A stretch of 64,000 bases of DNA from Actinomycetota bacterium (GTDB lineage Bacteria > Actinomycetota > UBA4738 > HRBIN12). The notes below the pieces were generated by a model. That model saw nothing but the letters and a program-made list of their open reading frames with translations. It had not been told where the DNA came from and ran no database searches. How positions within the stretch are numbered: the first letter of the stretch is position 1; each line of letters begins with the position of its first letter. The position numbers and the translations under genes were made by a program. Positions 2,921-30,772 of this stretch are shown here, one piece after another. The stretch is from NCBI GenBank assembly GCA_026003015.1, contig BPGL01000001.1:1006717-1070716 (forward strand), in the 5' to 3' direction.

Positions 2921-3041
2921 GCGTTCACCTCCACGGCTATCGGACACGTGACGCCGGGCACGACCGACCACCCGGGTGCGAACGGCGGTGCCGCGTATCC
3001 TACCAGCTCACCCGGACCGGCCGGCCGGTGGAGGCGGTGCT

Positions 3042-6790: not shown

Positions 6791-6849
6791 GTGCCGAGAC
6801 CTGGGAGGATAGGGAACCGCGGAACGCACGGACCGGTTGGGGGTGACGG

Positions 6850-12663: not shown

Positions 12664-13460
12664 GCGTAGCCGTAGCGGGCCAGCTGCTCGCCGGCGACGT
12701 CCTCGAGGAGCGCGAGGAGCTCCGCATCGAGGGTCGAGCGCCACTGCCCGATCGTCCCGCGGCGAAACGTTGGGCTGTCGGCCGAGAACAGCCGCTCGCA
12801 GACCCGTCGCACGAGGTCGTCGTCGGGCTCGAGCCCGAGGTGGCGGTAGAGCCCGGCGACGGCCTCGCGCTGGCGCCGTGGGTCGCCCCCGCCGCGCGCG
12901 CCGACGAGGTCCTCGAAGCGGACGACCAGGACCCCAGGGGCCTCGAGCCAGCCGGCGTAGTCGGCGAGCCGTCGACCGATCGAGCGCAAGCCGCCGCGCT
13001 CGTCCCCGGCGATCGCGAGCCGCAGCCGCTCTCGCTCGTCGGCTCGGGCCGCGAACAGGCCGTGTGCCCAGTGGTCGGTTCGGCCCATCGCGTAGCGGGC
13101 CTGGGAGATCACGACGTCGCGGGGGTCGCGGACCAAGAAGACGCCCCGCACCGCCCGGCGCCGCAGGTCCCCCGGGTAGGCGGGGTCGAACCGCAGGTGG
13201 GCCAGCACGACCTCGCCGGGTCCGAGCCGGGCAAGCAGCCCGTCGAGCCCACCCCGCCCGAGCTTGGCGCCCGTGATCGTGGGCAGGATCTTGCGGTACA
13301 AGCGCGGGTGCAGGCACAGCGCCCGCTCCACCAGGTGGGTGCCCGCCTTCGGGATGCTCACGCCGAGGACCTTCGGAGCGCTTCGGTCCAGGGCGCGGGC
13401 GCGCAGCTTCGCCGGGGTCAGGCCGAACCGCTCGAGCGTCCAGCGGTTCGCCGGGATCAC
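12660..13460 (-). CDS. Sulfotransferase family protein (PAPS-dependent), paralog 1
   Basis: The 5'-PSB-like motif is SIPKAGTHLV and the 3'-PB-like motif is RDPRDVVIS. Confidence 0.75.
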   Translation of the reverse strand: MIPANRWTLERFGLTPAKLRARALDRSAPKVLGVSIPKAGTHLVERALCLHPRLYRKILPTITGAKLGRGGLDGLLARLGPGEVVLAHLRFDPAYPGDLRRRAVRGVFLVRDPRDVVISQARYAMGRTDHWAHGLFAARADERERLRLAIAGDERGGLRSIGRRLADYAGWLEAPGVLVVRFEDLVGARGGGDPRRQREAVAGLYRHLGLEPDDDLVRRVCERLFSADSPTFRRGTIGQWRSTLDAELLALLEDVAGEQLARYGYA

Positions 13461-14482
13461 ACCTGCGCCTCGCGCGGCGCGCGATCCTCCTCGAGCAGCT
13501 GCCCCTCCCCCGTGCGCTCGAACGCGAGGACCGCGCGAAGGACCATGTCGACCGAGCCCACCGGATCGACGCCCACGGCGGTCTCCGCCGCGAGCACGAG
13601 GCCGTGGACGCCGTCCAGGAGGGTGTTCGCGATGTCGTTGGCCTCCGCGATCGTCGGCTGCCGACTCGTGACCATCGACTCCAGCAGGTTCGTGGCGACG
13701 TAGACGGGGCGGTTCCAGCGGTTCGCCCGACGCACGATCGCCTTCTGGTAGTAGGGGACGTGTTCCAGCGGGACCTCGCGGGACAGGTCTCCCCGGTCGA
13801 TGATGATCGAGTCGGCGGCGCTGATGATCGCGTCCATGTCGCGCACCCCCTGTCGACTCTCGATCTTGGCCATGACGTGGGCGCCTGAAGGCGCCAGCTC
13901 TCGCAGGCGGGCGACGTCGCGCGCAGATCCCGCGAACGACAGCGCGTAGTGCGCGATGCCGTGGCGGGCACCGAGCTCGATCGCCCAGCGGTCCTTGGCC
14001 GAGAGCGCCGGCAGGGTCGGCGCGGGCGTGACCGTCGCGGCCTTGTTCGATCGGACCCGTCCACCGGCGACGACGGTGGCCAGGGCGCGGTCCGGCTCGA
14101 CGCCGTCGATCCGGAGCCTAGCGCCGTCGAAATCGAGCGTGACCTCGGCGCCCTCCACGAGGCCCTCGAAGACCGTGGCCGGCCACAGGGGGATCCGGTC
14201 GCAAGCCCCCACGATCTCCTCGGGCGTGAGCTCGACCGACGCCCCTTCGACGAGCACGACGTCGGCGGCCATGCGACCGCAGCGGACCTGCGGTCCTTCG
14301 GTGTCCAGGCAGATCGGGACGTCGGCCGCCGAGCGCACGAGCTCGATCATCGGCTCGATCTCGGTGAGGGCGGTGTGGGACAGGTTGATCCGGAACAGAT
14401 CCACCCCGCGGTCCCCGAGCGCCGCGATCACGGCGGGATCGAGCGATGCGGGGCCGAGGGTGCACAGGATCTTGATCCTCAT
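13457..14482 (-). CDS. Pyruvate-kinase-family protein, barrel domain only (about 340 aa, no C-terminal allosteric domain)
   Basis: It carries the PK signature motifs KILCTLGPAS, MAKIE and DRGDL. Confidence 0.75.
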   Translation of the reverse strand: MRIKILCTLGPASLDPAVIAALGDRGVDLFRINLSHTALTEIEPMIELVRSAADVPICLDTEGPQVRCGRMAADVVLVEGASVELTPEEIVGACDRIPLWPATVFEGLVEGAEVTLDFDGARLRIDGVEPDRALATVVAGGRVRSNKAATVTPAPTLPALSAKDRWAIELGARHGIAHYALSFAGSARDVARLRELAPSGAHVMAKIESRQGVRDMDAIISAADSIIIDRGDLSREVPLEHVPYYQKAIVRRANRWNRPVYVATNLLESMVTSRQPTIAEANDIANTLLDGVHGLVLAAETAVGVDPVGSVDMVLRAVLAFERTGEGQLLEEDRAPREAQV

Positions 14483-14554: not shown

Positions 14555-15352
14555 TCAGCGCGGTTCGAAGCTGATCCGGCCGGTCTTCTTCGCGAGGAGC
14601 CACGACGGGTTCCGCGCGTTCAGCCGCAGGCTGAGGGCCCGGCCGAGCAGGTAGGGCACGAGGCCCTCTCCCCCGTGGGCTACGCGGACCCGGCGGCTCT
14701 CCTGGCGCATGCGCTCGGGGTCCAGCGAGATCTGGCCCGGGTGCAGCCGGAACCGGCCCAGGACGCGGGGGAGGACGAGCGGAGGGGCGAGCTTCAGCGC
14801 CCGCGCGTACCAGTCGTAGTCGCCGCAGTTGCGGTAGGTGTCGTCGTACGGACCCACGCGTTCCAGGAAGCTCCGCCGCACCCACACGGTCTGCTGGGGG
14901 ATCGGGGACCAGCCGATCCCGAGGTAGGCGCGCAGGGACGGAGCGACGGGCCGCATGCGTCCGAGGACCCGGCCCGCCTCGTCGATGTACTCGACCGTCC
15001 CGATCACCCACTCGGCCTCCGGATGCGCGGCGAGGCCCTCGACCACCGCCTGCAGCGCCCCGGGCGCGATCTCGTCGTCGGCGTTGATGTAGCCGACGAC
15101 GTCGCCCTCGACGGCCGCGAGCCCCCGGTTGATGGCGTCGTACATCCCCCGGTCGTCGGTCGCGACGACCACCCGAGACGGGAAGGCGGCCGCGATCTCG
15201 AGCGTGCGGTCCTTCGACCCGCCGTCGACGATCACGTGGTCGATCCGTACGCCCTGCTGCCCCCAGATGGAGCGCAGGGTCGCCTCGAAGAACGCCTCGG
15301 CGTCGAGCGTGGGGGTGACGACGCCCACCGTCGTCGCTTCGTGGTCGGTCAT
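14555..15352 (-). CDS. Glycosyltransferase family 2
   Basis: GT2-like motifs are present (VVTPTLDAE ... DGGSKD ... DDE). Start chosen at MTDHEATT. Confidence 0.7.
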   Translation of the reverse strand: MTDHEATTVGVVTPTLDAEAFFEATLRSIWGQQGVRIDHVIVDGGSKDRTLEIAAAFPSRVVVATDDRGMYDAINRGLAAVEGDVVGYINADDEIAPGALQAVVEGLAAHPEAEWVIGTVEYIDEAGRVLGRMRPVAPSLRAYLGIGWSPIPQQTVWVRRSFLERVGPYDDTYRNCGDYDWYARALKLAPPLVLPRVLGRFRLHPGQISLDPERMRQESRRVRVAHGGEGLVPYLLGRALSLRLNARNPSWLLAKKTGRISFEPR

Positions 15353-15377
15353 CGGTCGTCCTGTAACGTAGGGGGCC

Positions 15378-16304
15378 GTGTCTGCCCCCCAACCGATCCT
15401 GGTAACGGGGTCCCACCGATCGGGCACCGGGTGGGTGGGACGCATCATAGCCGCCGCGCCGGAGCCGGCGATCGCCTACCTGTGGGAACCGTTCAGTCCG
15501 CTCGCTCGACCGGGGATCCGGGCGGCCCCCTTCGATCGATGGTTCACCTACGTGTGCCCGGATAACCAGGACCGCTACGAGAAGCCCCTGCGGGACATGC
15601 TGGCGTTCCGCTACCGATGGGACGCGGAGCTCCGGGCGGTCCGCACGCCGAAGGACGCGGCCCGCATGGTCCGCGACGCGGCTCGGTTCCGTCGGTTCCG
15701 CGCGGGCTCGGCGGTCCCGCTGCTCAAGGACCCGATCGCCGTCTTCTCCGCCGAGTGGATCGCCGACCGGCTCGGAGCTCGGGTCGTCGTCCTGATCCGC
15801 CACCCGGCGGCCTTCGCACACAGCGTCCGGCGCCGTGAACTGCACCACCCGTTCGCGGACTTCCTCGATCAGCCGCTGCTGCTGCGGGACCTGCTCGGCC
15901 CCTTCGAAGCGGAGATCCGCCGGTTCGCCGACGAGCCGCAAGGCCTCCTCGATCAAGGGATCCTGCTGTGGCGCCTGATCCACCACGCGATCGCGCTCTT
16001 CCGCGAGCGGCGACCCGACTGGCTCTTCCTCCGGCTCGAGGACGTGGCCGACGACCCGCTCGGCCGCTTCGAGGAGATCTACGCCGTCCTCGGGCTCCCC
16101 TTCGGGGACCGCGCCCGCGCCCTCGCGATCGAGACCAGCAGCCCCTCGAACCCCGTCGACGTGAACGACATGGCCTCCACGAGACGCGACAGCCGCGCGG
16201 CCGTACGGAGCTGGAAACGCGGGCTGTCCCCCGACGACGTGGCGCGGATCCGCGAACGGGTCGAGCCCCTCGCGAGCGAGTTCTACAGCGATGACGACTG
16301 GTGA
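15378..16304 (+). CDS. Sulfotransferase-family protein, paralog 2
   Basis: The P-loop-like motif is LVTGSHRSGTGWV and the RHP motif is VLIRHPAAFAHS. Confidence 0.6.
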   Translation: MSAPQPILVTGSHRSGTGWVGRIIAAAPEPAIAYLWEPFSPLARPGIRAAPFDRWFTYVCPDNQDRYEKPLRDMLAFRYRWDAELRAVRTPKDAARMVRDAARFRRFRAGSAVPLLKDPIAVFSAEWIADRLGARVVVLIRHPAAFAHSVRRRELHHPFADFLDQPLLLRDLLGPFEAEIRRFADEPQGLLDQGILLWRLIHHAIALFRERRPDWLFLRLEDVADDPLGRFEEIYAVLGLPFGDRARALAIETSSPSNPVDVNDMASTRRDSRAAVRSWKRGLSPDDVARIRERVEPLASEFYSDDDW

Positions 16305-17727
16305 GGGCGCCGTAGGCGACCCGCTCGAGGCCTCGATCGAGGAGGTCGAGTCCGAGGCCGCGTTCCACTCGCTCCGCCGTCGGATGCTCCGCGGCTCGGC
16401 GTGGGTGATGGCCGGCAAGGTCGCCACGATCCTGCTCGGGGTCGTGATCAACGGGCTGCTCGCCCGGCTCCTTCGGCCCGAGGAGCTCGGCGCGTACTTC
16501 ACGACCTACGCCCTCGTCGTGATCGGGAGCACGGTCGGTCAGCTCGGGTTCGACCGCGCGGTGGTGCGCTTCGTCTCGAGCTCGCTCGGAGCGGGGGACC
16601 CGGGACGGGCACGCTCTGCGATCCGTCAGAGCCTCATCTACGGGTCGCTCGGCGCGGCCTCGCTCGGGCTCCTCCTGGTCCTCGGCCTCGGCTCTTGGCT
16701 CGCCGAGCACGTGTATCGGTCCGAGCTCGTCGGCCGGATCATGCCGATCGCGGCCGGGTGGCTCGTCGCCGCGGCGCTCCAGTCGCTGTTCGTCGAGACC
16801 TTCCGCGGACTGCAGCGCTTCGACCTGGCGACCGTGCTCGACGCGCTGCTCGTCGACGTCTTGTCCGCGACCATCTTCGGAGCGCTGTTCCTGGCCGGCT
16901 CGGATACGGACCTGCGATCGATCGCGGCCCTGTCGGCCGGCGCCACGCTCGCGGTCACGATCGTGGCCGCCGGCTCGCTCGCCGGGCGCGTCCGGGGCCT
17001 GGGCGGCGACGGCAGGATCGAGCGCCGGGAGCTCGTGGCGTTCGCCTGGCCCATGTTGATCACGAACGTGGCCATCCTCCTGCTCGGTCGGGGGGTCGAC
17101 CTGTGGATCCTCGGCGCGTTCCGGGGCCAGGAGGACGTGGCGATCTACGGAGCCGCCTCACGTCTCATCGTCTTCGTGGCGACGCCGTTCTTGATCGTCC
17201 AGGGCGTCACGCCCCCGATCGTGGCCGAGCTGCACGCGCAGGGCCGGATCCGCGACATGGAGCGGGCGCTGCGGGGCGCGGCGACGATCGCGGGACTGCC
17301 CTCGTTCCTGGTCCTGCTCGTGTTCGTGGTGTTCGGGTCCACGGTGATGGGTCGGCTCTACGGACCCTTCTACGCGCAGGGAGCGACGGTGCTGGTGATC
17401 CTCGCGATCGGGCGGCTCGTGGCGGTGTGGACGGGCTCGTGCTCCGTGGCCTTGATGATGACGGGCCATCAGCGCGCGGCGATGACGGTGACGCTCGTCG
17501 CCGGCGTCGTGAGCGTGGCCGGCGGCCTCCTCGCCGCTCCGCTGTTCGGGCGGGTAGGGGTGGCGGTGACCACCTCGCTCGCGCAGATCGGGCAGAACCT
17601 CGTCCAGCTCCTGCTGGCCCGTCGGCGCGTGGGCGTCTGGACGCACATCGAGCTGTCCCCCCGACCGATCCTCGAGTTCCTCACCGGTCGGGGGCCGGTC
17701 GGGCGCGGCGTTCGGAGGGGCCGGTGA
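16291..17727 (+). CDS. Polysaccharide flippase (Wzx, MOP/PST family)
   Basis: It is about 12-TM, hydrophobic throughout, and its size and pattern fit PST transporters. Confidence 0.75.
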   Translation: MTTGEGAVGDPLEASIEEVESEAAFHSLRRRMLRGSAWVMAGKVATILLGVVINGLLARLLRPEELGAYFTTYALVVIGSTVGQLGFDRAVVRFVSSSLGAGDPGRARSAIRQSLIYGSLGAASLGLLLVLGLGSWLAEHVYRSELVGRIMPIAAGWLVAAALQSLFVETFRGLQRFDLATVLDALLVDVLSATIFGALFLAGSDTDLRSIAALSAGATLAVTIVAAGSLAGRVRGLGGDGRIERRELVAFAWPMLITNVAILLLGRGVDLWILGAFRGQEDVAIYGAASRLIVFVATPFLIVQGVTPPIVAELHAQGRIRDMERALRGAATIAGLPSFLVLLVFVVFGSTVMGRLYGPFYAQGATVLVILAIGRLVAVWTGSCSVALMMTGHQRAAMTVTLVAGVVSVAGGLLAAPLFGRVGVAVTTSLAQIGQNLVQLLLARRRVGVWTHIELSPRPILEFLTGRGPVGRGVRRGR

Positions 17728-19716: not shown

Positions 19717-20982
19717 ATGGTGACCGACGCCCCCCCGCTCCACGCCGGCCGCACGCGTGCCCGCCCCAGCGACGGGTACCGCTACGCCCGCGCGCTCCTC
19801 GTGATCTTCCTCGTCACGGCCGTCGACGTCTTCAACCTCCTCGACCGCGCGAGCCGCGGCGGGCCGACCCGCTACGCGATCCTGCTCGTCCCCGCGGTCG
19901 CCGCCCTGGCGATCCGGACCCGGGGCTCCACGCTCGTGCGCCGACCCCGCACGCACGAACGCCTCCTGCTGATCCTGTTCGCCTTCGGGCTGCTCGGCAC
20001 GACCTACGGGATCGTGTTCCTGCACATCACGAGCACGGCCCGAGCGATCTTCCTTCCGATGTCGATCGCGATCCTCGCGCTGCTCGTCATCGAACCGATC
20101 CGCGAGGAGGAGGCGAGACGGCTCGTGCGCCTGATCGCCTGGATCGGGACGATCTACATCGTGCTGGGGGCGGTCACCTACTCAGGCCTCGCCGAGAGCC
20201 TCGCGGCGTACCGACAGTTCAAGAACGCCTCGTTCCCCTACACGATGCTCGGGATCAGCGCCGCCCTGCTGCTGGGGCACCGGGCGTGGGCGTTCGTGCT
20301 CGCCGGGCTGACCGCCGTGATCTTCTTCGGCTACCCGTCGGCCACCTCGGTCTTGATCATCTTGGTCACCGCGCTCACGTTCTTCGCGACGAGCACCCGG
20401 GCGTCGCGAACCCGCCCCTACCTGATCGCCGCCACGATCCTGGCGATCGGCGTGGCGGGCCTCGTGAACTTCAACTCGAGCGTCGAGATCGCCGACCGGT
20501 ACTTCGACGCCGTGGGCAAGCGGAACACCACCGCCGGCCGGCTGGAGTTCTGGACGAACGGCCTCGCGCAGTGGCGAGCATCACCGCTGATCGGCAGCGG
20601 GTTCGCCAGCGAGACCGTGATCGAGGCGAGCCGGAACCGCCGCTCCCCCTACCACAACGACTTCGTGCTGTTCCTCGCCGAAGGCGGGATCGTGGGGTGC
20701 GCGTTGTTCGTGAGCTGGCTCGTCCTGCTGCTGCGAGATCTCCTGCACCGGTACTTCGCGTTCGCGGACTCCGGCGCCGTCAGCCAGGCGCTCCTCGCTC
20801 GGCTCCTGCTCGTTGGCCTGGGGAGCTACGTCGTGTCGATGCTGTTCAACCCCGTGATCCAGGGGTTGTCACGCTCCGCCACGATCTTCGCCCTGGCCGC
20901 GATCTCCACCGCGCTCGGCCGGCCCGAGTCGGTGCCGGCCGAGACCGCGCTCGAGCGTCGATCGGCCCTCGTCCCTGCGTAG
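19717..20982 (+). CDS. O-antigen/EPS polymerase (Wzy / O-antigen-ligase-domain protein)
   Basis: It is multi-TM with an RLEFWTNGLAQWRASPLIGSGF periplasmic-loop motif. Confidence 0.7.
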   Translation: MVTDAPPLHAGRTRARPSDGYRYARALLVIFLVTAVDVFNLLDRASRGGPTRYAILLVPAVAALAIRTRGSTLVRRPRTHERLLLILFAFGLLGTTYGIVFLHITSTARAIFLPMSIAILALLVIEPIREEEARRLVRLIAWIGTIYIVLGAVTYSGLAESLAAYRQFKNASFPYTMLGISAALLLGHRAWAFVLAGLTAVIFFGYPSATSVLIILVTALTFFATSTRASRTRPYLIAATILAIGVAGLVNFNSSVEIADRYFDAVGKRNTTAGRLEFWTNGLAQWRASPLIGSGFASETVIEASRNRRSPYHNDFVLFLAEGGIVGCALFVSWLVLLLRDLLHRYFAFADSGAVSQALLARLLLVGLGSYVVSMLFNPVIQGLSRSATIFALAAISTALGRPESVPAETALERRSALVPA

Positions 20983-21870
20983 CCACGCGGGCAGGTCCTC
21001 GTACCCGTGGGCGCGCAGGATCGACGCGAGCCTCGCGTTGTGCGGTGCGAACAGCTCCTCCAGGTGACGCCGCGTCGCGGGATCCATCGTCTCGGGCGTA
21101 CGGCGCCGGTTCAGGGCGTAGTACGCCCGTCGGAGCGGAGCCTTGAGCCGTCGTCGTCCCCCCAGGAGCCGCTCACGGTTCAAGAACAGCGCCACCCGCT
21201 GCAGCAACCGACTGCGCACCAGCTCCGTCCGGTTCTCGATCGAGAAGGTGAACGAGCGAACGCACACCTCGTCGATCCCGAGCCAGCGCGCCAGATCGAC
21301 GACCACCGCCCTCGGGTCCTCGGCGAGGTGTTCGGCGAACACGACCCGCAGGTCGCCGCCGAACGACTCGAGCCAGGGCTCGATGTGGTCGGCGTAGACG
21401 CCACCCGCCAGGTGCCACCACGGTCGGGTCTCGGGCGTGAGCGGCGCTTGCTCCCGCCAGATGTGCTCGGATCGCTCCACGTAGGCCTCGAAGCTCAGGG
21501 TCTCGGGCACCGGCCCCAGGCGGCTCTTCGTGAAGCGGAACTGCGACCACAGTCGCTCTACGGGGTCTCGCAGGCTGATCACGACGCGGGGCCTACCGAG
21601 CAGGCGGCGCATCGCCTGGATCACGGGCGCCCCGCCGTGGAAGTACTGCGGGCTCGCCTCCATCGCGTACCGCTCGCCGCGGCAGTGCCGGAAGTGGCGC
21701 TCGTAGGTCTCGACGGGCGGCAGCTCCGTGCCGCCCTCGGTGAGCCCGGCGAAGTAGCGGATCTCCTTCTCGTCAGACGCGCAGATGTCGGGATGCTGGG
21801 ACAGGTACCAGAACAGCGAGGTCGTGCCGGCCTTGCCGACGCCGGCGATCACGAGGTTCGGGAGCGTCAC
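20869..21870 (-). CDS. Sulfotransferase family protein, paralog 4
   Basis: The motifs are IAGVGKAGTTSL and ISLRDPVERLWS. The 3' end overlaps wzy by about 110 nt. Confidence 0.75.
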   Translation of the reverse strand: MTLPNLVIAGVGKAGTTSLFWYLSQHPDICASDEKEIRYFAGLTEGGTELPPVETYERHFRHCRGERYAMEASPQYFHGGAPVIQAMRRLLGRPRVVISLRDPVERLWSQFRFTKSRLGPVPETLSFEAYVERSEHIWREQAPLTPETRPWWHLAGGVYADHIEPWLESFGGDLRVVFAEHLAEDPRAVVVDLARWLGIDEVCVRSFTFSIENRTELVRSRLLQRVALFLNRERLLGGRRRLKAPLRRAYYALNRRRTPETMDPATRRHLEELFAPHNARLASILRAHGYEDLPAWLRRDEGRSTLERGLGRHRLGPAERGGDRGQGEDRGGA

Positions 21871-22826
21871 GGCGACCCTCGGTAGCCGTAGCGGACCAAC
21901 AGCGGCCAGGTGAGCGCGGTCACCACGCGCCGGTGCGTCGGCGACAGCCGGTGACGCCAGGCGTCGTCCTCGCGCAGGGGCAGGCGACCGGCCTCCAACC
22001 GCATGCGACTGCCGGCGGCGAGGTGATCGGTCGGCAGCTCCACCCAGCCCTCACCGATGAACCCCAGGTCGTCGACCCGCCGCTCGATCCCAAGCTCGCT
22101 CAGCACGCGCAGCAGGGCCCCCTTGGGCGAACGAACGAGCTCCTCGTAGCGGAGACGCGACGTCGGGACGCCGAGCCCGGCCAGCGCGTCGAACGAGAGG
22201 TTCATCCAGATCCACTTCTCGCCGGACTTGGGAGGCGGGCGGCGCACCCGGAACTCGTCCGAGCGAGCTCCCTGGCGGTGGACCCACTTCGTCTTCGAGT
22301 ACGCCACACCGCGGCTGTCGCGCACGAGGTGCACAACGCGCAGGTCGACCTCGGGCATCCTGCTCACCATGTAGACGTGCGCGGGCTGCTTCATCGAGTC
22401 GACGATGACCCGCCCGCCGGACGCGCGATGGATCCCCACGTACAGCCGACCCATCAGCGCTTGGTAGCGACGCAGGTCGGCGCCGTAGCGCCGGGACAGC
22501 GACGGCCGGAGGATCAGGGGCAGAGCGAGGGCGTGGGGCGCCCGCCCCCGAAGCGTCAGGCCGTCGCGCAGGCGCGTGGCCTCGGCGGTGTCCACGCGGT
22601 CCCAGCCGCCGAAGGCCTCCTCGCCCACGGCCGTCCAGAACGGGCAGGCGCGGAACGGCTCCCCGCACCCGCAGGCCATGTCCTCCACGAGCCCCTTGTC
22701 CCACACACGACCGGTCTCACCCACGGCGACGAGGCCCGGCACCTGCCCGAGCATCCGAGCGAGCAGCGTGGACCCGCTCTGGCCGATCGCACCGATGCAC
22801 AGCACGGGGATGCGCTCCATCGACAT
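21867..22826 (-). CDS. Sulfotransferase family protein, paralog 5
   Basis: The motifs are IGAIGQSGSTLLARML and HLVRDSRGVAYS. Start taken at MSMERIPV. The track ORF extends further 5' across the neighbouring gene. Confidence 0.7.
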   Translation of the reverse strand: MSMERIPVLCIGAIGQSGSTLLARMLGQVPGLVAVGETGRVWDKGLVEDMACGCGEPFRACPFWTAVGEEAFGGWDRVDTAEATRLRDGLTLRGRAPHALALPLILRPSLSRRYGADLRRYQALMGRLYVGIHRASGGRVIVDSMKQPAHVYMVSRMPEVDLRVVHLVRDSRGVAYSKTKWVHRQGARSDEFRVRRPPPKSGEKWIWMNLSFDALAGLGVPTSRLRYEELVRSPKGALLRVLSELGIERRVDDLGFIGEGWVELPTDHLAAGSRMRLEAGRLPLREDDAWRHRLSPTHRRVVTALTWPLLVRYGYRGSP

Positions 22827-22977
22827 CGCGCCCTCAGGGGTCGGGGAAGGTGCAGAAGGGACGTCAGTATAGGGTCGCACGACCCGCGCTGCTAGACTGC
22901 CGGCCACCGCCCCCGAGCCGCCCCCGAGAAGGAGGTGAGCCTCCCTGGCGACCCCGCGCGCCGACGATCGCCCCACG

Positions 22978-23802
22978 GTGATCTTCCTGCACATCGGCAA
23001 GACCGCGGGCTCGTCGCTGCGTCGGATCCTGCGCAGACAGTTCCCGGCGCGGGAGGTCCTCGAGTTCCGAGCACCGCTGCCCGAACCGGGGCGCCTGCGC
23101 CGGGAAGGCGCGGTCGCCGCCTTCGCGACGATCCCCGAGGCCGACCGAGCCCGCGCCCGCCTGATCATGGGGCACACGACCTTCGGGCTGCACGAGCTCG
23201 TGCCCCGGCCGAGCACGTACATCACGATGCTCCGCGACCCGGTGGCGCTCGTCGTCTCCCTGTACGGGCACATCCTTCGCACCGAGCGCCACATCCTGCA
23301 CGACGAGGTCGTCAGCAGGGGACTCTCGCTGGGCGGGTTCGTTCGCAGCGGGATCTCCGTGGAGGCCGACAACAGCCAGACCCGCGCCCTCGCCGGCGAC
23401 ACGTCCACCCCGTTCGGGGGCTGCACGGAGGCGATGCTCGAGCGCGCCAAGACCAACGTGGAACGCCACGTCGCCGTAGCCGGACTGACGGAGCGTTTCG
23501 ACGAGTCGCTGCTGCTGCTCGGGCGGACCTTCGGCTGGACCCGCCTGTACTACGTGGCCATGAACACCGCGCCGAGGCGGATCGAGCCGACGGCGGAGGA
23601 GATCGAGGAGATCCGGGAGCGCAACCGCTTGGACCTCGACCTGTACGCGTGGGCCGCAGCCCGGTTCGAGGAGCAGCTCGCCGCCGACCCGAGCTTCGAC
23701 GATCGGCTCCGGCGGTTCCGCCGCGCGAACCGCCTGTACCGCCCCTGGGGTCAGCTCACGTGGGCGCTGCCCACCCGGGCGGCCGCCCGTCTGGCGCGCT
23801 AG
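22978..23802 (+). CDS. Sulfotransferase family protein, paralog 6
   Basis: The motifs are IFLHIGKTAGSSL and TMLRDPVALVVS. The GTG start is far from the only SD, so the start is uncertain. Confidence 0.65.
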   Translation: MIFLHIGKTAGSSLRRILRRQFPAREVLEFRAPLPEPGRLRREGAVAAFATIPEADRARARLIMGHTTFGLHELVPRPSTYITMLRDPVALVVSLYGHILRTERHILHDEVVSRGLSLGGFVRSGISVEADNSQTRALAGDTSTPFGGCTEAMLERAKTNVERHVAVAGLTERFDESLLLLGRTFGWTRLYYVAMNTAPRRIEPTAEEIEEIRERNRLDLDLYAWAAARFEEQLAADPSFDDRLRRFRRANRLYRPWGQLTWALPTRAAARLAR

Positions 23803-24959
23803 CCGCGCGCCTCGATCGCCGCGCCGTAGGCGTCCTCGAGGGCACGAAGGCCGGCCTGCGGCCCGTACCGGTCCCGCCACAGGGCCGCCGCCCGGTCGCC
23901 GAGGCGACGGACCTCGGCGTCCTCCAGGAGCCGCCGACAGGCCGCCGTCCACGCCCCGGGCTCGCCGGCCGGCACGAGCAGCCCGGTCTCGCCGTGGACC
24001 ACGCCCTCGGGGAGCGCGCCGACCGCGCTGGCGACGACGGGAACGCCCGCCGCGTAGGCCTCGAGGACCGCGCGCGGCACGGCCGGCTCGGGCCAGCGCG
24101 AGGGGACGAGGACCGCGCGCGCGGCCGCGATCAGGTCCGCCGCCCGGTCGGCCGGAACCGGACCGAGCACCTCGACCTCCGGCGGGACGTCACGGCGGAG
24201 CCGTTCGGACTCAGGTCCGTCTCCGGCCACGAGCAGGCGCCCGAGCTCCGGACGCCATGCGGCGAGCAGGACGTCGACCCCCTTCTCCGGCGCGAGGCGG
24301 CCGAGGAACAGGAAGTGCTGGCCCGGGCCGTCGCGCCGGCGGGCCGGCGGGACGAAGTTCGGCTTGACGAGGATCCGCTCGGCCTCGAACCCGGCGCCCA
24401 CGTGGCGGTCGCGCACGAACGCGCTCACGGCGAGGAAGCGGTGCACGGCGGCGAACGAGCCGACGGCTCGGTGCAGGGTCAAGGAGGCGGCGAGGGCCGC
24501 GCTGCCGGCCAACGAGCCGCGGTAGCAGCGGTAGCGGACACCGCGCCAGGGGACCCGACCGACGCAGACCTCGCACGGCCGGCCGTCGCGTTCGAGCGAG
24601 GCCGGGAGGCAGAGCAGCCGGTAGTTGTGGAGGGTCACGACGACGGCCGCCCCCGCGCCGCGCGCGGCGGTCAGGACCGCCGGCGATAGGGTCGGGAACA
24701 GGTTGTGGGCGTGAACAACGTCGATGTGCTCACGCCGAACGACCCGTCGCACCGCCGCCGCGACGTCGGGCGCCCAGAGGGCTCGGGCCGCGGTACGGAT
24801 GCGATCCCGGGCGCGGTCGACCTGCGGCTCGAGCTGACGGAGCACGACCCGGTGGCCGGCGTCGGCCAGCATCCGTGCCTCGTCGACCACCACCCGGTTC
24901 TCCCCGGAGACGTCGCCGGACCGGTAGCGGGAGTGAAGGATCAGGACGCGCACGACCAT
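23799..24959 (-). CDS. Glycosyltransferase family 4
   Basis: GT4 domain architecture is present, with a C-terminal E..E motif region (PSRWPEPAVPRAVLEAYAAGVPVVAS). Confidence 0.8.
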   Translation of the reverse strand: MVVRVLILHSRYRSGDVSGENRVVVDEARMLADAGHRVVLRQLEPQVDRARDRIRTAARALWAPDVAAAVRRVVRREHIDVVHAHNLFPTLSPAVLTAARGAGAAVVVTLHNYRLLCLPASLERDGRPCEVCVGRVPWRGVRYRCYRGSLAGSAALAASLTLHRAVGSFAAVHRFLAVSAFVRDRHVGAGFEAERILVKPNFVPPARRRDGPGQHFLFLGRLAPEKGVDVLLAAWRPELGRLLVAGDGPESERLRRDVPPEVEVLGPVPADRAADLIAAARAVLVPSRWPEPAVPRAVLEAYAAGVPVVASAVGALPEGVVHGETGLLVPAGEPGAWTAACRRLLEDAEVRRLGDRAAALWRDRYGPQAGLRALEDAYGAAIEARG

Positions 24960-25017: not shown

Positions 25018-26007
25018 TCAGACCGCTTCGCGCTGCGTCCGGACGCGGCCGGCCTTCACGAGCTCGGACTCGATCCAGCGGTACGTGGCCGCGATCCCGT
25101 CCTCGAGGGACGTGCTGGGTTCCCAGCCGAGCACCTCGCGCAGCTTCGTGTTGTCGCTGTTGCGACCCCGCACCCCCTGAGGCTTGGACACATCGTGGAC
25201 CTTCACGAGGGTCTTGCCCGCAGCCGCGCAGACGAGGTCGACCAGCCCGTCGACGGTGATCAGCCGATCCGTCCCGAGGTTCAGCGGCGAGCGGTAGTCC
25301 GAGCGCATGAGGCGATGGATCCCCTCGACGCAGTCGTCGACGTAGGTGAACGACCGGGTCTGCTGGCCGTCGCCCCAGATCTCGATCGCGTCGCCGTCGG
25401 ACGCCAGGGCCACCTTCCGGCAGATCGCAGCCGGGGCCTTCTCACGGCCGCCCTCGTAGGTCCCCAGCGGGCCGTAGATGTTGTGGAAGCGGGCGACGCG
25501 GGTGTCGAGCTTGCCCTCCTCGGTGAAGTACTGGCAGAGCTTCTCCGCGTACAGCTTCTCCCAGCCGTACCCCTCCTCGGGGTCGGCGGGGTACGCGTCC
25601 TCCTCCCTGAGCGGCGTGACGTCGGGCTCGTGCTGCTTGTACATGGGGTAGATGCAGGCCGACGAGGAGTAGAAGTAGCGCTCCACGCCGTTCTCGTGTG
25701 CGGCCTGGAGCATGTGCGCGTTGATGAGCACGTTGTTGCGCGCGACGTCAGCGTGGTTCGCGGTGATGTAGCCGATGCCTCCCATGTCGGCGGCCAGCTG
25801 GTACACCTCGTCGACGTCGGCGGTGGCCTTCCGACAGTTCTCGAACTCCCGCAGGTCGAGCAGGAGGAACTCGTCGGCGTCGGTCGGCTCGTACTCGGGT
25901 TCCTTGATGTCGACGCCGCGGACCCGGTAGCCCTCGGCCTTCAGGTACTTCACGAGGTGGTGCCCGATGAACCCCCCGGCCCCCGCCACGGTCGCACGCT
26001 TCGTCAT
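25018..26007 (-). CDS. NAD-dependent epimerase closely resembling GDP-mannose 3,5-epimerase
   Basis: GAGGFIGHH, YASSACIYP and RFHNIYGP..GGREKAPAA are collinear with GME. The ATG at 26007 follows a GGAGGA SD. Confidence 0.75.
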   Translation of the reverse strand: MTKRATVAGAGGFIGHHLVKYLKAEGYRVRGVDIKEPEYEPTDADEFLLLDLREFENCRKATADVDEVYQLAADMGGIGYITANHADVARNNVLINAHMLQAAHENGVERYFYSSSACIYPMYKQHEPDVTPLREEDAYPADPEEGYGWEKLYAEKLCQYFTEEGKLDTRVARFHNIYGPLGTYEGGREKAPAAICRKVALASDGDAIEIWGDGQQTRSFTYVDDCVEGIHRLMRSDYRSPLNLGTDRLITVDGLVDLVCAAAGKTLVKVHDVSKPQGVRGRNSDNTKLREVLGWEPSTSLEDGIAATYRWIESELVKAGRVRTQREAV

Positions 26008-26834
26008 CGCGATCCTCCGTTCGCCCATGACCCGCCGCGTCGCCACCCCAGCAGCTGGGCTGCGAACAGGGCGACGAAGCGGGGGTTCTGCTTCAGGTAG
26101 CGGCGCCACAGACGCCGCGGCTCGGTCGCCAGCCGGAAGGCCCACTCCAGCCCGGCCCGCTGGAGCAGGCGGGGCGCCTGGCGCTTGCGCCCGCTCAGGA
26201 AGTCGAACGCCGCTCCCACGCCGACCGTGACCGCCGGCACACGCCCCCGGTTGCGAGCCATCCACCGCTCCTGCTTCGGACACCCCAGGCCGACGAAGAC
26301 GATCCGCGCGCCCGAACGGGCGATCTCGGCCGCGCTGCGCCGCTCCTCCTCGGCGGCGAGCTCACGGAACGGCGGCGCTTCTGCGTAGACGATCCGAAGC
26401 GCCGGGAACGCGCGGGCGGCGAAGGCGCGCAGGTCGGCGAGGACCTCGGGGGTCCCGCCGTACAGGCCCACCGGCACACCCTCCGTCGCGGCGCGGGCCA
26501 GTAGCCGCGGCATCAGCTCCGGGCCGCATACGCGCGTCGCCGAGCGAACCCCCAGCCACCGCAGCCCCCACACGAGCGGCATGCCGTCGGGCGTGACGAG
26601 ATCCCCGTCGTTCATCACGTGGCGGTAGGTGGGATCGTCGTAGCTGTGCATCACGTTGTTGACGGTCGCGACGAACACCGTGCGGCTCTCCCCGTACTTC
26701 GCCCAACGGATCACCCGCTCGACCGCATCGTCGTAGGACGTCGCGTCGACCCGCATCCCCAAGATCCACCGGTATCGCAGCGGTGGCAGGAGGGCGTCGG
26801 CCGCCGACGCGGAGGGGACGTCGGTGCTCGCCAC
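26004..26834 (-). CDS. WecB/TagA/CpsF-family glycosyltransferase (GT26)
   Basis: It aligns to WecG/TagA (RYRWILGMRVDA...GLGCPKQERWM). The GTG start overlaps the upstream stop. Confidence 0.75.
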   Translation of the reverse strand: MASTDVPSASAADALLPPLRYRWILGMRVDATSYDDAVERVIRWAKYGESRTVFVATVNNVMHSYDDPTYRHVMNDGDLVTPDGMPLVWGLRWLGVRSATRVCGPELMPRLLARAATEGVPVGLYGGTPEVLADLRAFAARAFPALRIVYAEAPPFRELAAEEERRSAAEIARSGARIVFVGLGCPKQERWMARNRGRVPAVTVGVGAAFDFLSGRKRQAPRLLQRAGLEWAFRLATEPRRLWRRYLKQNPRFVALFAAQLLGWRRGGSWANGGSR

Positions 26835-26836
26835 GA

Positions 26837-28285
26837 TCAGTACGCCCCCATCCGCGCGATCGTCGCGATCACCGTCTTGGCGAGGATGTACAGGTCCAGG
26901 CCGATCGACCAGTTCTGGATGTAGTACAGGTCCATCCGCACGGCCTGCTCGGGGTCCACGTCGCTGCGGCCGTTGACCTGCCACCATCCGGTGAGACCCG
27001 CCCGCACCTCGTGCCGCGCCTCGAGCAGCTCGGGGTTCGCACGGACCTGCTCCTCCCACAGCGGCCGCGGACCGACCAAGCTCATGTCACCGCGGACGAC
27101 GTTCCACAGCTGCGGCAGCTCATCGAGGCTCGTTCGCCGAAGGAACGCCCCGATCGGGGTCAGCCTCGGGTCATCGCGGAGCTTGAAGAACGGCTTCGTG
27201 AGGTCGATCACGGCGTCCTCGAGGGCGGCGCGCTGGTCGGTGTGCATCGTGCGGAACTTCAAGCACGTGAAGATCCGGCCGTCCTTCGTGACGCGGGGCT
27301 GGCGGAACAGCACGGGGCCCGGCGAGGTGAGCCGGACGGCGATCGCGACGGCGAGCATCACCGGCGCGGCCAGGACCAGCCCGATCGACCCCAGCACGAG
27401 GTCGAACGCGCGCTTGGCGGCCGCCTGCGGCCCGGTGAGGCGCGCCGGGTGCACGCGCAGCGCCAGGAAGTCCCCGACGCTTTCGAAATCCAGGCGCTCG
27501 GTGTGCACGTCCGGGAGGTTCGCGGCGACGCGCAGCTCCAGGTCGTAGCGGCGGCTCAGGCGCCCGAGCCTGGTCATGTCGTTCGGACCGATCTCGGACG
27601 AGGCGACGAACAGGCACTCGATCCCCTCCTCCAGCACGATCCGCTCGAGATCGTCGAACCCTCCGAGGACCGACCCGGGGACCTCCTCGGGCGTGTCGGT
27701 CACGAACCCGACCGGCCGGTACCCGCGCGCCGGCGGCACGATCGCGGCGGCGATCCGGGCGGCCTCGCCGTCGCGACCCACGATCGCGGTTCGCAGGGCG
27801 AGCGTCCCGCGACGCCGGAGCGACCGCACCCCGGCGCGCCACAACCCGCGCGCCAGGAGCTCCGCGAGGAGCGCGGATCCCCACAGGAGGGCGACCCGAC
27901 CGCGAGCGATGCTGCCGTCCCACAGGGGGGTCGCCGCCTCGAGACCGAGCACCGCCACGCTCGTGGCGGCGACGATTCGGCGGAACTCCTCCAGCGGCGG
28001 CAGCAGCGCCCGCCGGTACAGCCCGAACGCCGCGAAGCACGCGGCCCAGGCGATCGGGGCGAGCCCGAGGGTCACGCCGTAGCCCACGACCGAGCTCGTC
28101 GATCCGCGGAACGCCGCCACCAGGGCGAGGGCGATCGCGACGTCGGTGAGGGCCCGGGCCAGCACGACGAGGCGGAAGCGCTGCAGCGAGGGCCGGACCT
28201 TCTCCAGGTCGAGGACCCGCACGCGCTCGGCCGTGCCGAGCGCCGCGACGGCCTCCTCGCGGCCGGTGAGGTCGAGCCGTTCCAT
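26837..28285 (-). CDS. Undecaprenyl-phosphate sugar phosphotransferase (priming PGT, WbaP/CpsE-like)
   Basis: The bacterial sugar-transferase C-domain is present (PRPLWEEQV...GLTGWWQVNGRSD) with N-terminal TM helices. Confidence 0.85.
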   Translation of the reverse strand: MERLDLTGREEAVAALGTAERVRVLDLEKVRPSLQRFRLVVLARALTDVAIALALVAAFRGSTSSVVGYGVTLGLAPIAWAACFAAFGLYRRALLPPLEEFRRIVAATSVAVLGLEAATPLWDGSIARGRVALLWGSALLAELLARGLWRAGVRSLRRRGTLALRTAIVGRDGEAARIAAAIVPPARGYRPVGFVTDTPEEVPGSVLGGFDDLERIVLEEGIECLFVASSEIGPNDMTRLGRLSRRYDLELRVAANLPDVHTERLDFESVGDFLALRVHPARLTGPQAAAKRAFDLVLGSIGLVLAAPVMLAVAIAVRLTSPGPVLFRQPRVTKDGRIFTCLKFRTMHTDQRAALEDAVIDLTKPFFKLRDDPRLTPIGAFLRRTSLDELPQLWNVVRGDMSLVGPRPLWEEQVRANPELLEARHEVRAGLTGWWQVNGRSDVDPEQAVRMDLYYIQNWSIGLDLYILAKTVIATIARMGAY

Positions 28286-28531
28286 CAGGCGACCACCCCG
28301 CCTCCGCTTCCATCCGGCGCGCCGAACGGCAACCCCCCGGACGGGGTCGCGACGCACGACCCCCGTTCGAGGGACCGTGGGTCCCTCCGGGGTCGGCCGA
28401 GAAGCGATGGGGAACGATGGCGGTGGGACCCGTTCATCACGCACCTGACGTAGGAAGGTGAACGCTAGCTTAACGGCGCAAACGGGCTACGCGATTCATC
28501 CGTTGGGGGTAAACCTCATGCGTCGTTCCGA
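28286..28531 (-). promoter_or_regulatory. Leader and promoter region of the priming-PGT operon. It is locally AT-richer and has two stable hairpins.
   Basis: GC drops around 28440-28530. The hairpins are at 28343-28363 and 28369-28387. Confidence 0.3.
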
Positions 28532-29197
28532 CTAGGACTTCCGCCGGTCCCAGGCTCGCCCCCCGGCCCGACGCGCCAGCGCCACCGCCTCCAGGCGCGA
28601 GTGGACGCCGAGGCGGCGCAGCACGTTCTGCACGTGGCGCTTGGCCGTCTGCGGGCTGATCACGAGCGCCGCGGCGATCTCGTCGTTGCGCGCACCCGCC
28701 AGGAGCATCTCCACCACCTCCCGCTCCCGGGCCGTGAGGCGGGCCAGTCGATCGGCCGCGTCCTCCTCCGCGAGGCGCCAGGCCACCAGCTCGTCCAGGA
28801 GCGCCGCCAGGTCCGCGGGGTCGAAGGCCGCGGCCGTCCGGCCGAGCGCGACCGCGGCGTCCGCAAGCGCCTCCGGGGTGGCGTTGGGGCCGAGCGCGCC
28901 CCGGGCGCCGCCGATCACCGCCTCGGCCAGCTGACGCCGGTCGTCCACGAGCGCGAGCACCCGCGCCGGACCCGACGCCGCCACGACGTCGGCCACCGTC
29001 GCCCGGGGGTCGACCTGCAGGCCCACGAGGTCGACGGCCACGACGTCGGCCGGCCACGGCCGCCTGGCGCCCTCCCGCACGCTCGCCTGACCCACGACGC
29101 GCAGGCGTCGGTCGCGAGCGAGCACGTGCGCGAGCGCCTCGCGCACGAGCACCGGCTCACACAGCACCGCGATCTGGATCCGCTCCGGGGAGCTCAC
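28532..29197 (-). CDS. LuxR/NarL-family response regulator (REC + HTH)
   Basis: The C-terminal LuxR HTH is REREVVEMLLAGARNDEIAAALVISPQTAKRHV. Confidence 0.75.
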   Translation of the reverse strand: MSSPERIQIAVLCEPVLVREALAHVLARDRRLRVVGQASVREGARRPWPADVVAVDLVGLQVDPRATVADVVAASGPARVLALVDDRRQLAEAVIGGARGALGPNATPEALADAAVALGRTAAAFDPADLAALLDELVAWRLAEEDAADRLARLTAREREVVEMLLAGARNDEIAAALVISPQTAKRHVQNVLRRLGVHSRLEAVALARRAGGRAWDRRKS

Positions 29198-29829
29198 GGC
29201 GCCGCGCGGTCCAGGCCCCGCCGCGAAGCGATCGCCACCGCCTCGAGACGGGAGCCGACCCCCAGCTTCGCGAGGATGCTCTGCACGTGGGAGCGCACCG
29301 TGTTGGCCGACAGGCCGAGGTCTTCGGCGATCGCCCGTCCGCTCTTGCCCTGCGCGAGCAGGCTCAGGATCTGCCGCTCCCGGGGGGACAGGCGTCGCAC
29401 CCCGTCCGCAGCGGGCCGGCGACGGGCGCCGCGGCCGCGACCGGAGGGCTCGATCGGAGGCAGGACGATCCGGCCGGCCGCCACCGCGCGGATCGTCGCG
29501 ATCGCCGGCGCGAGCCCCTGGTCGGTGCGCACGTGCCCGTGGAAGACGGCGCGGTCCCCGGCGGGTTGCCCGGACGAGGGCTCGACCAGGGCGATCAGCC
29601 GCGCGCCCGGGACGAGCCGCGCCAGCTCGCCCCCGACGTCCCAGCCCCAGCGTCCGCCGGCGGCTTCGTCCACGAGGATCACGTCGGGCCGCGCCTCGTG
29701 GGCGACCCGTCCGGCCTCCTGCGGATCGTCAAGGACGTCGAGGACCCGGAGCCCTGCGTCCGCGAGCGCCCGGCCGAGGGCCTGGCCCGCGAGCGGCCTG
29801 CCCGCGACGATCAGGACCCTGACGTCCAC
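29194..29829 (-). CDS. LuxR/NarL-family response regulator, second copy
   Basis: The C-terminal HTH is RERQILSLLAQGKSGRAIAEDLGLSANTVRSHV. Confidence 0.75.
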   Translation of the reverse strand: MDVRVLIVAGRPLAGQALGRALADAGLRVLDVLDDPQEAGRVAHEARPDVILVDEAAGGRWGWDVGGELARLVPGARLIALVEPSSGQPAGDRAVFHGHVRTDQGLAPAIATIRAVAAGRIVLPPIEPSGRGRGARRRPAADGVRRLSPRERQILSLLAQGKSGRAIAEDLGLSANTVRSHVQSILAKLGVGSRLEAVAIASRRGLDRAAP

Positions 29830-29830
29830 C

Positions 29831-30772
29831 CTAGACGCCCTTGAGGTAGGCCACGGTCTCGGCGAGCCCGTCCTCCAGGTGCGTCCAGGGTTTCCAGGCG
29901 ATCGCCGAGGCCGCCCGCCCGATGTCGAGCGCGATCCTCCGCGGGTCGCCGGGCCGCGGTGGGCCGTAGAGGGGTTCGCCCGGGAACCCGATGATGTCCG
30001 CGAGCGTGCGGAACACGTGGTTCACGCTCGTCTCGAGCCCCGTCCCGATGTTCACGAGCTTCGCCGATCCCTGATCGATCGCTCGAACGAACGCGTGCAC
30101 GGCGTCGTCGATGAAGACGAAATCGCGGGTCTGGTTCCCATCCCCGAAGATCGTCGGTGCCTCGCCGGCGAGCATGGACGCGGCGAAGACCGCGACCACC
30201 CCCCCGCAGGCCGGATCCTGCCGCGGCCCGTAGACGTTGGCCAGCGCGAGAGCCGTGTAGTCGAGCCCGCGGTAGCGGTGGTAGACGCCGAGGTAGTCGA
30301 GGACGACCTTCTTGGAGATGCCGTACGGCGTGAGCGGGAACGACCCCTGCGCGGCCGTCTCCTTGACGGGCAGACGTCGTGGTTCGCCGTACAGGGACCC
30401 TCCCGACGCGGCGTACACGATCTTCCGAGCCCCCACGCGCGTGGCGCACTCGAGCACGTTCAGCGTCCCCATCACGTTGACCGAGGCGCTCGTGATCGGG
30501 TCCGTGAGCGACTGGCCGGCACCGACGTGAGCCGCGAGGTGGAACACTACCTCGGGGCGATGGCGTTCGAACAGCGGCAACAGGCCTTCGGCCCGTACGT
30601 CCATGTTGAAGAACGTGAACTCCTTGCCGTACCCGCGGGCCTCCGCGAGGTTCGCGATCCGCCCGGACGACAGGTCGTCGACGCTGACGACGCGGTGCCC
30701 CTCGGCCAGGAGACGGTCGGCGAGGTGACTGCCGATGAACCCGGCGCCCCCGGTCACCAGGACGGTCGTCAC
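29831..30772 (-). CDS. NAD-dependent sugar epimerase/dehydratase (GalE-like)
   Basis: It has TGGAGFIGSHL and a YxxxK SDR fold. The GTG start overlaps the tsaD stop. Confidence 0.8.
   Translation of the reverse strand: MTTVLVTGGAGFIGSHLADRLLAEGHRVVSVDDLSSGRIANLAEARGYGKEFTFFNMDVRAEGLLPLFERHRPEVVFHLAAHVGAGQSLTDPITSASVNVMGTLNVLECATRVGARKIVYAASGGSLYGEPRRLPVKETAAQGSFPLTPYGISKKVVLDYLGVYHRYRGLDYTALALANVYGPRQDPACGGVVAVFAASMLAGEAPTIFGDGNQTRDFVFIDDAVHAFVRAIDQGSAKLVNIGTGLETSVNHVFRTLADIIGFPGEPLYGPPRPGDPRRIALDIGRAASAIAWKPWTHLEDGLAETVAYLKGV

Follow-up and report, generated by a model that had tools for sequence, protein, structure and literature searches.

The 64 000 nt of DNA analysed here (hereafter the window), from contig BPGL01000001.1 of a metagenome-assembled Actinomycetota genome, contain a gene for a GDP-mannose 3,5-epimerase family member (GM35E, or GME), an assignment that is supported by sequence; catalysis is predicted. 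The gene (P0001) lies at positions 25018..26007 on the minus strand, the protein has intact catalytic residues and the predicted fold of the family, and the operon layout places it among genes of lipid-linked polysaccharide synthesis. We consider it quite likely that, taken as a whole, the gene and its operon represent an NAD-bound GME of the extended short-chain dehydrogenase/reductase (SDR) class that feeds an L-hexose to a lipid-linked repeat unit. The enzyme would act on GDP-mannose, one of its products would be used by a glycosyltransferase of the locus, and the L-sugar may then be sulfated. From the operon context, we reasonably infer that the L-hexose enters the repeat unit. The source genome is 2.2 Mb in four contigs and 90.5 % complete, and the G+C content of the window is ~72 %.

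The GME gene is intact, with 329 codons and a stop, running from an ATG at 26007-26005 to a stop codon at 25020-25018. A Shine-Dalgarno-like hexamer, GGAGGA (26013..26018, minus strand; read from the sequence), lies 5 nt upstream of the ATG, within the 3' end of the preceding GT26 glycosyltransferase gene. The mechanically called open reading frame (ORF) extends upstream to a GTG at 26283 and has a further in-frame ATG at 26028; as homologues are 327-331 amino acids (aa) long and cover 96-100 % of the 329 aa form, 26007 is the likely start.

An earlier, sequence-only reading of this DNA had described the protein as collinear with GME and had pointed to characteristic motifs. Two of these are present: GAGGFIGHH at residues 8-16, and a motif of the RFHNIYGP...GGREKAPAA type at residues 173-194 (RFHNIYGPLGTYEGGREKAPAA). 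The third, YASSACIYP, is the plant version and does not occur as spelled, the window protein having YSSSACIYP. The collinearity, which by far exceeds what chance would give, was borne out by phmmer against PDB sequences: residues 4-318 aligned with 8sg0 (E 3.9e-107) and 2c59 (E 1.1e-105) as a single ungapped-like stretch, interrupted by just two short gaps. All of the top five matches were GMEs, 8sg0 being followed by four Arabidopsis entries (1.1e-105 to 7.3e-105), and the best non-GME match was the E. coli GDP-fucose synthase 1bws (E 2.1e-29); the bit scores were 357-362 to GME versus 106 to the fucose synthase, Fcl. BLASTP against P0132, a plant GME that matches 8sg0 at E 2e-248, gave 158/317 identities (50 %); the identity extends along the entire protein and takes in the GVRGRNSDN stretch.

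Profile libraries were less specific. Pfam recognized only the generic Epimerase family (PF01370, 1.3e-49), and the NCBIfam scan returned no GME model, so that its best match was the Fcl model NF047922 (1.7e-39). It is this match, together with the generic Pfam matches, that could suggest that the protein is in truth GDP-L-fucose synthase (GMER/Fcl) or UDP-hexose 4-epimerase (GalE) and owes its GME label to mere resemblance, a reading that we regard as scarcely credible. The Fcl model scored 136 bits against a cut-off of 500, and the GalE model TIGR01179 scored 69.5 against 262.3; with its best match so far below cut-off, NCBIfam could not name the protein.

The residues that define the family are more telling. 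As described in PMC8787198, GM35E is defined, and set apart from GMER and GalE, by an S143/Y174/K178 triad, a C145/K217 pair, R306, R243 and N203 (Arabidopsis numbering), where R306 acidifies the Cys, R243 binds the diphosphate and N203 is the 'orange-wall' Asn; the same account assigns Cys/His/Lys to GMER at the three columns that discriminate. In our 116-sequence alignment, mapped on to the numbering of that paper, S116, C118, Y147, K151, N176, K190, R218 and R282 of the window protein correspond to S143, C145, Y174, K178, N203, K217, R243 and R306. Thus, the Ser/Tyr/Lys triad for C4 oxidation and reduction is present (S116, Y147, K151), and the acid-base pair is C118 and K190, with Lys, not His, as the base. 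The K190 column holds K in 98 of the 110 family rows and H in E. coli Fcl, which has Cys/His/Lys at the three discriminating columns; the Cys-acidifying Arg is R282 (Lys in Fcl), and the diphosphate Arg (R218) and the Asn (N176) are also kept. GalE, RmlB and Gmd have yet other residues, GalE having Thr at the C118 column. The glycine-rich NAD motif of the extended-SDR Rossmann fold is GAGGFIG (residues 8-14), with G9, G12 and G15.

Phylogenetic placement, which the sequence-only reading had proposed as a check, grouped the window protein with plant GME and not with Fcl, GalE, RmlB or Gmd in two trees. A search of 1.84 billion cluster representatives gave 1244 at E ≤ 1e-30, and the best 150 of these were taken. 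The quick IQ-TREE of 116 rows used 103 of the 150, the 47 outside 300-420 aa being dropped and the plant representative being retained after cutting to 380 residues, together with the query itself and six close homologues, with Fcl, Gmd, RfbB and GalE of E. coli, and with the two other extended SDRs of the genome (SDR2, SDR3). Neither tree includes MfGM35E (UniProt I0K0X9) or BlmG (Q9FB21), the two bacterial homologues discussed below. The query and plant GME fell within one 110-row clade (SH-aLRT 90), with Fcl as the next branch outside it, and GalE, RmlB, Gmd, SDR2 and SDR3 were separated at 97. The careful tree of 39 rows recovered a 32-row GME clade with the query and the plant sequence (support 97/88), and GME plus Fcl against the rest, including GalE, at 100/99. 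The exact placement of the outgroups is unsure because their branches are long; their exclusion from the GME clade is consistent with the bit scores and the residues.

The predicted structure points the same way. AlphaFold, supplied with an alignment of 50 sequences, gave a model with a mean pLDDT of 96.0 and a pTM of 0.93, and the 14 best chains in a Foldseek search of the PDB were all GME (TMq 0.86-0.95, root-mean-square deviation (rmsd) 1.0-2.4 Å), 8sg0 and 2c59 matching at TM 0.94 and rmsd 1.0-1.2 Å. The next match was Thermotoga GalE (E 5e-29), and E. coli Fcl reached TMq 0.81. Fcl (WcaG) is the sister family in the trees and shares the fold and the 3,5-epimerisation chemistry with a Cys acid; it differs from the window protein in having His and Lys in place of K190 and R282, in needing a Gmd-made 4-keto-6-deoxy substrate and in consuming NADPH. 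No Gmd to feed an Fcl was found above cut-off in the genome. An Fcl or GalE identity is refuted by the residues, the model scores, the trees and this lack of a Gmd above cut-off.

We looked to the rest of the genome for the likely substrate of the GME. Three extended SDRs were detectable with the GME query: GME itself, a GalE-like SDR (29834..30772) that is separate from the GME gene, and an RmlB-like protein. A ManC-like gene (C1:913633-914667) had mannose-1-phosphate guanylyltransferase as its best NCBIfam match, below the model cut-off, and a second phosphoglucomutase/phosphomannomutase (PGM/PMM) gene is present. As the genome contains neither a Gmd nor a UDP-Glc/GDP-Man dehydrogenase above cut-off, plain GDP-mannose would be its only evident GDP-sugar. 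This bears on the alternative that the GME-family enzyme acts on another nucleotide sugar (GDP-mannuronic acid, a GDP-deoxyhexose or a UDP-sugar) or catalyses a single epimerisation only. The family, which fills 110 rows of the tree, is a deep one, and family fusions with UDP-Glc/GDP-Man dehydrogenase, NUDIX, methyltransferase and NodZ-like domains show functional spread. Set against this are the lack, in a 90.5 % complete genome, of above-cut-off enzymes for making other GDP-sugars, the retention of all the GM35E catalytic and substrate-contact residues named in PMC8787198, and the 50 % full-length identity to plant GME; we therefore judge a different substrate or reaction very unlikely.

The fusions came from a scan of 26 multi-domain GME representatives, in which partners were FkbM and class-I methyltransferases, UDP-Glc/GDP-Man dehydrogenase, NUDIX, GT2, inteins and a weak NodZ-like match (31.1 bits); no GME-GT26 fusion was seen among the 26. 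Natural fusions of this kind (P0124, P0142, P0151, P0152, P0153, P0195 and P0255) hint at the fate of the L-sugar nucleotide in other lineages, the weak NodZ-like match being to a fucosyltransferase-type domain. LAGLIDADG, Hint or intein-splicing domains interrupt six GME-family proteins of 645-760 aa (P0187, P0205, P0219, P0220, P0221 and P0235), indicating that the GME genes of some organisms carry inteins.

Judged from its homology to the enzymes of Arabidopsis and Methylacidiphilum, the window GME would be self-sufficient and NAD-bound. GDP-alpha-D-mannose would be oxidised at C4 by Tyr147, Lys151 and Ser116; Cys118, acidified by Arg282, and Lys190 would then take protons from C5 and C3 and put them back. 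Renewed reduction at C4 would yield an equilibrium of GDP-L-galactose as the main product, GDP-L-gulose and a little GDP-D-altrose. The gene would be co-transcribed and translationally coupled within its operon, and a glycosyltransferase of the locus would draw off one product, so that the L-hexose would enter the lipid-linked repeat unit early; the repeat unit would then be flipped by Wzx, polymerised by Wzy and probably sulfated.

The same enzyme chemistry would also serve a cell that uses GDP-L-gulose, the C5 epimer, so that the repeat unit would contain L-gulose instead of L-galactose. According to PMC8787198, GM35Es release GDP-L-gulose beside GDP-L-galactose, and PMC6678494 presents BlmG, 42 % identical to AtGME, as the proposed source of L-gulose for bleomycin biosynthesis in an actinomycete; no sequence feature separates the use of the two sugars. 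Against L-gulose, GDP-L-galactose is described as the main product of the characterised enzymes (PMC8787198). The locus also has a galactose-3-O-sulfotransferase-family gene, a family name that says little about the substrate in bacteria. We regard the use of L-gulose as rather unlikely.

GM35E is well studied in plants and has been characterised once in bacteria, to judge from PMC6678494 and PMC8787198. The window protein resembles the GMEs of Arabidopsis (2C54/2C59/2C5A/2C5E) and Myrciaria dubia (8SG0/8SKB) in its full-length match, its catalytic and substrate-contact residues, which are all identical, and its predicted fold. It lacks their ~27-residue N-terminal extension and ~35-residue C-terminal tail (329 versus 377-379 aa), and whereas plant GME feeds ascorbate and cell-wall synthesis, the window GME lies in a lipid-linked polysaccharide operon. 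An ascorbate-type pathway was dropped on this context alone, no search for a GDP-L-galactose phosphorylase having been made.

Among bacteria, Methylacidiphilum fumariolicum MfGM35E is the only biochemically characterised GM35E in the accounts of PMC6678494 and PMC8787198. As described there, it is a stand-alone enzyme encoded beside glycosyltransferase genes with a presumed role in a surface glycan, as is the window GME; it comes from a thermoacidophilic verrucomicrobium, and the description gives no GT26 or sulfotransferase context. The same papers report actinomycete homologues proposed for the biosynthesis of bleomycin (BlmG, from Streptomyces verticillus) and A201A. These are actinobacterial like the window GME and are proposed suppliers of L-gulose or L-galactose; they feed secondary-metabolite glycosylation, whereas the window GME lies in a Wzx/Wzy polysaccharide locus. 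Our comparisons with MfGM35E, BlmG and the A201A enzyme are by description alone. The window gene is thus a further member of the known GM35E family, found in the context of polysaccharide and not of antibiotic synthesis.

The neighbours that the sequence-only reading had named are real. The operon runs on one strand in the order priming transferase, GT26, GME, GT4. The first gene (26837..28444, minus strand) encodes a large polyprenyl-phosphate hexose-1-phosphate transferase (PF02397, 6.3e-68; TIGR03025, with 385.5 bits exceeding its cut-off of 295.55), and its stop codon (26839-26837) lies 2 nt before the start of the GT26 gene. The latter (26004..26834, minus strand; likely GTG start at 26834) encodes a protein of the WecG/TagA/CpsF family (PF03808, 1.5e-58) that is the sole GT26 of the genome and has TagA (7mpk, 6.9e-31) as its best PDB match; its TGA stop (26006-26004) overlaps the GME ATG as ATGA. 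The GT4 gene (23799..24959, minus strand; PF13692, 1.1e-30; PF00534, 1.1e-24) follows 58 bp downstream of GME. Judging from this spacing, the four genes are probably transcribed together. Two LuxR/GerE-type regulators (PF00196, 3.2e-17 and 1.3e-18) are encoded upstream of the operon, at 28532..29829 on the minus strand.

GME relatives are abundant: a word-indexed search found at least 8000 homologues, and among the matches listed (119 besides the query) identity was 76-88 % and ~43 were named GDP-D-mannose 3',5'-epimerase by JGI. In contigs representing one genome per species, at least 582 of 599 candidate stretches encode a GME relative. The best 80 of these (64-84 % identity) came from Actinomycetota, Acidobacteriota, Chloroflexota/Thermomicrobiota, Verrucomicrobiota, Gemmatimonadota, Alphaproteobacteria and others. 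Within the window's order, the gene is patchy, with orthologues (71-88 % identity) in five of 40 relatives (G001, G011, G020, G029 and G037); G029 and G037 are unpublished genomes, on which the order-level GME count and adjacency partly rest.

To take a census of neighbours, cluster proteins of the window were compared by tblastn with the best 80 related loci, and matches were accepted at E ≤ 1e-8 if they spanned 50 % or more of the query. A GT26 homologue lay within 10 kb of GME in 42 of the 80 loci and a priming transferase homologue in 40, compared with 18 for GT4 and 11 for GT2. The GT26 gene directly adjoined GME (<300 bp, same strand) in 33 loci, with 17-175 bp between the matches, upstream of GME in 24 and downstream in nine; this figure is a lower bound, as short contigs account for several of the loci. 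Such adjacency was found in Actinomycetota, Chloroflexota, Acidobacteriota, Verrucomicrobiota, Gemmatimonadota and Alphaproteobacteria. In the order-level sample of 41 genomes, a GT26 was present in six of six GME-bearing genomes versus eight of 35 without GME, and the two genes were neighbours in five of the six; these genomes are kin, and so the counts are not independent. A Pfam survey of 15 loci hand-picked for taxonomic spread, which covered the 70 candidate ORFs closest to GME out of a total of 126, found a priming transferase in nine (seven Bac_transf, two WecA-type).

Other arrangements were also seen. In four uncultured Actinomycetes (L021, L029, L052 and L086), a 76-78 % identical GME adjoins the GalE-like SDR that belongs to the tsaD backbone; Pfam scans of L021 and L029 showed a beta-lactamase-family gene between them and no glycosyltransferase within ~4 kb, so that GME is also found outside obvious polysaccharide operons. 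Two Chloroflexota (L040, 6988-11693; L046, 6587-11672) encode, in this order, a carbamoyltransferase, a GT4, GME and a small priming transferase. A carbamoylated sugar beside L-gulose is the pattern of the bleomycin disaccharide, and this gene order may represent a similar pattern in a polysaccharide-type context.

Which transferase would use the GME product? The usual GT26 donor is UDP-N-acetylmannosamine or its uronic acid, UDP-ManNAc(A), of which the genome has no evident source, as no UDP-N-acetylglucosamine 2-epimerase was found in it. The gene beside a GT26 tends to make its donor sugar, and we accordingly favour the GT26 as the most likely candidate L-sugar transferase, with the GT4 as a live alternative. 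In a GT26 tree, the GME-adjacent sequences were clustered (eight label changes versus a shuffled mean of 14.5). To our knowledge, the GT26 family is known solely for ManNAc(A) and glucose transfer; our literature search found no paper mentioning both GT26 and L-galactose, and none of the papers listed by a search on WecG, L-galactose and GDP-L-galactose contained WecG. Comparison with E. coli fucosyltransferases did not identify the consuming transferase: WcaI had no similarity to the window GT4 (E 5.5), and WcaE shared generic GT-A similarity with the window GT2 (E 1e-9, 25 % over 169 aa). We tentatively propose, as a possibility well short of probable, that GME and GT26 form a conserved, horizontally mobile module in which the GT26 transfers L-galactose or L-gulose on to the lipid-PP-hexose made by the priming transferase, and that in this lineage the L-sugar is then sulfated by the galactose-3-O-sulfotransferase-like enzyme.

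Two same-family genomes without GME (G018, locus L108; G023, locus L109) have a UDP-Glc/GDP-Man dehydrogenase gene downstream of the paired priming transferase and GT26 genes. It overlaps part of the GT26 frame as called and occupies about the position that GME has in the window. This arrangement looks like cassette exchange of a donor-sugar gene.

The operon lies within a Wzx/Wzy-type locus, which also has a Wzx-type flippase (16291..17727, plus strand; PF01943, 1.6e-20), a Wzy-type polymerase (19717..20982, plus strand; PF04932, 8.5e-12) and a Wzz/tyrosine-kinase-like protein (6847..8592; Pfam/NCBIfam scans). It holds five sulfotransferase-family genes (PF00685, PF13469, PF06990). The galactose-3-O-sulfotransferase-family gene (22978..23802, plus strand; PF06990, 3e-11) is convergent with the GT4 gene. 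Two others, at 20869..21870 and 21867..23456 on the minus strand, matched PF00685 (3.6e-9) and PF13469 (3.1e-7) as a pair, the PF13469 domain lying at residues 220-458; the second gene probably begins at a position lower than 22978. The remaining two were found by Pfam at 12660..13460 (minus strand) and 15378..16304 (plus strand). A GT2 gene (14555..15448, minus strand; Pfam scan) completes the glycosyltransferases discussed here, and between it and a sulfotransferase gene sits a gene for a 341 aa protein consisting of the pyruvate kinase barrel only (13457..14482, minus strand; PF00224, 5.3e-61; TIGR01064, with 251 bits short of its cut-off of 306). The only APS kinase (CysC) domain of the genome is encoded at 1065..1511 on the minus strand (C1:1007781-1008227; PF01583, 7e-62); APS kinase makes 3'-phosphoadenosine 5'-phosphosulfate (PAPS), the sulfate donor for sulfotransferases. 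Directly adjoining it is a type I phosphodiesterase/nucleotide pyrophosphatase family gene (1517-3007, minus strand; PF01663, 5.1e-41). Four ORFs within or flanking the locus, at 8592-9878 (minus), 10126-11385 (plus), 11755-12660 (plus) and 18692-19663 (minus), have coding-like GC3 (G+C at third codon positions) and no significant Pfam match; the last is 67 % identical in the syntenic locus L020.

The suggestion of the sequence-only reading that an L-sugar fits the sulfation theme of the locus is weakly supported. The sulfotransferase-rich locus is syntenic in one same-family genome (L020), where the combination of GME and sulfotransferases is kept and the galactose-3-O-sulfotransferase-family gene is 68 % identical. 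Elsewhere, homologues of the five window sulfotransferases lay within 10 kb of GME in 0, 0, 2, 5 and 1 of the 80 loci, and no sulfotransferase family was matched at E ≤ 1e-12 among the 70 ORFs around GME in the 15 hand-picked loci. The link to sulfation is thus local to the lineage rather than a property of bacterial GMEs. In G020, a galactose-3-O-sulfotransferase-family gene adjoins the GT26.

Several observations weigh against the account of a GDP-mannose epimerase that feeds an L-hexose to this operon and its GT26. It should be noted that the organism is known just as a metagenome-assembled genome, that the activity is predicted from sequence, and that GM35E gives a product mixture in which sequence cannot tell the use of L-galactose from that of L-gulose. 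The ManC-like gene scored 294.8 bits, below the model cut-off of 440, and no type-I phosphomannose isomerase was found with PF01238 in the 90.5 % complete genome, a model that matched in just two of 14 control genomes. Two GMEs (P0152, P0195) are fused to a UDP-Glc/GDP-Man dehydrogenase, so not every family member need act on GDP-mannose itself. In the 15 hand-picked loci, a GT4-type gene lay within ~4 kb of GME in seven (adjoining in five), versus a GT26 in four. The GME-adjacent GT26s did not form one exclusive clade, and the starred 17-row clade of the window GT26 includes those of G018 and G023, which lie beside the dehydrogenase gene and not GME; in G014 and G026, the neighbour of the GT26 is another SDR, 35-36 % identical. 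Finally, the association of sulfotransferases with GME was not general in either the 80-locus census or the 15-locus survey.

The window GME alone adds little to the family, which has thousands of near relatives in metagenomes, many of them bearing the name GDP-D-mannose 3',5'-epimerase already. Among bacteria, L-hexoses are rare. The gene helps to predict the sugar make-up of an apparent sulfated Wzx/Wzy polysaccharide from a non-cyanobacterial source; according to PMC8205485, cyanobacteria are the only bacteria to make sulfated extracellular polysaccharides. The recurrence of the GME-GT26 pair across phyla yields a candidate, open to testing, for the transferase of L-galactose or L-gulose in bacteria. 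If the proposed module were true, it would represent a new donor specificity for GT26 and an actinobacterial counterpart of the sulfated L-galactans of algae.

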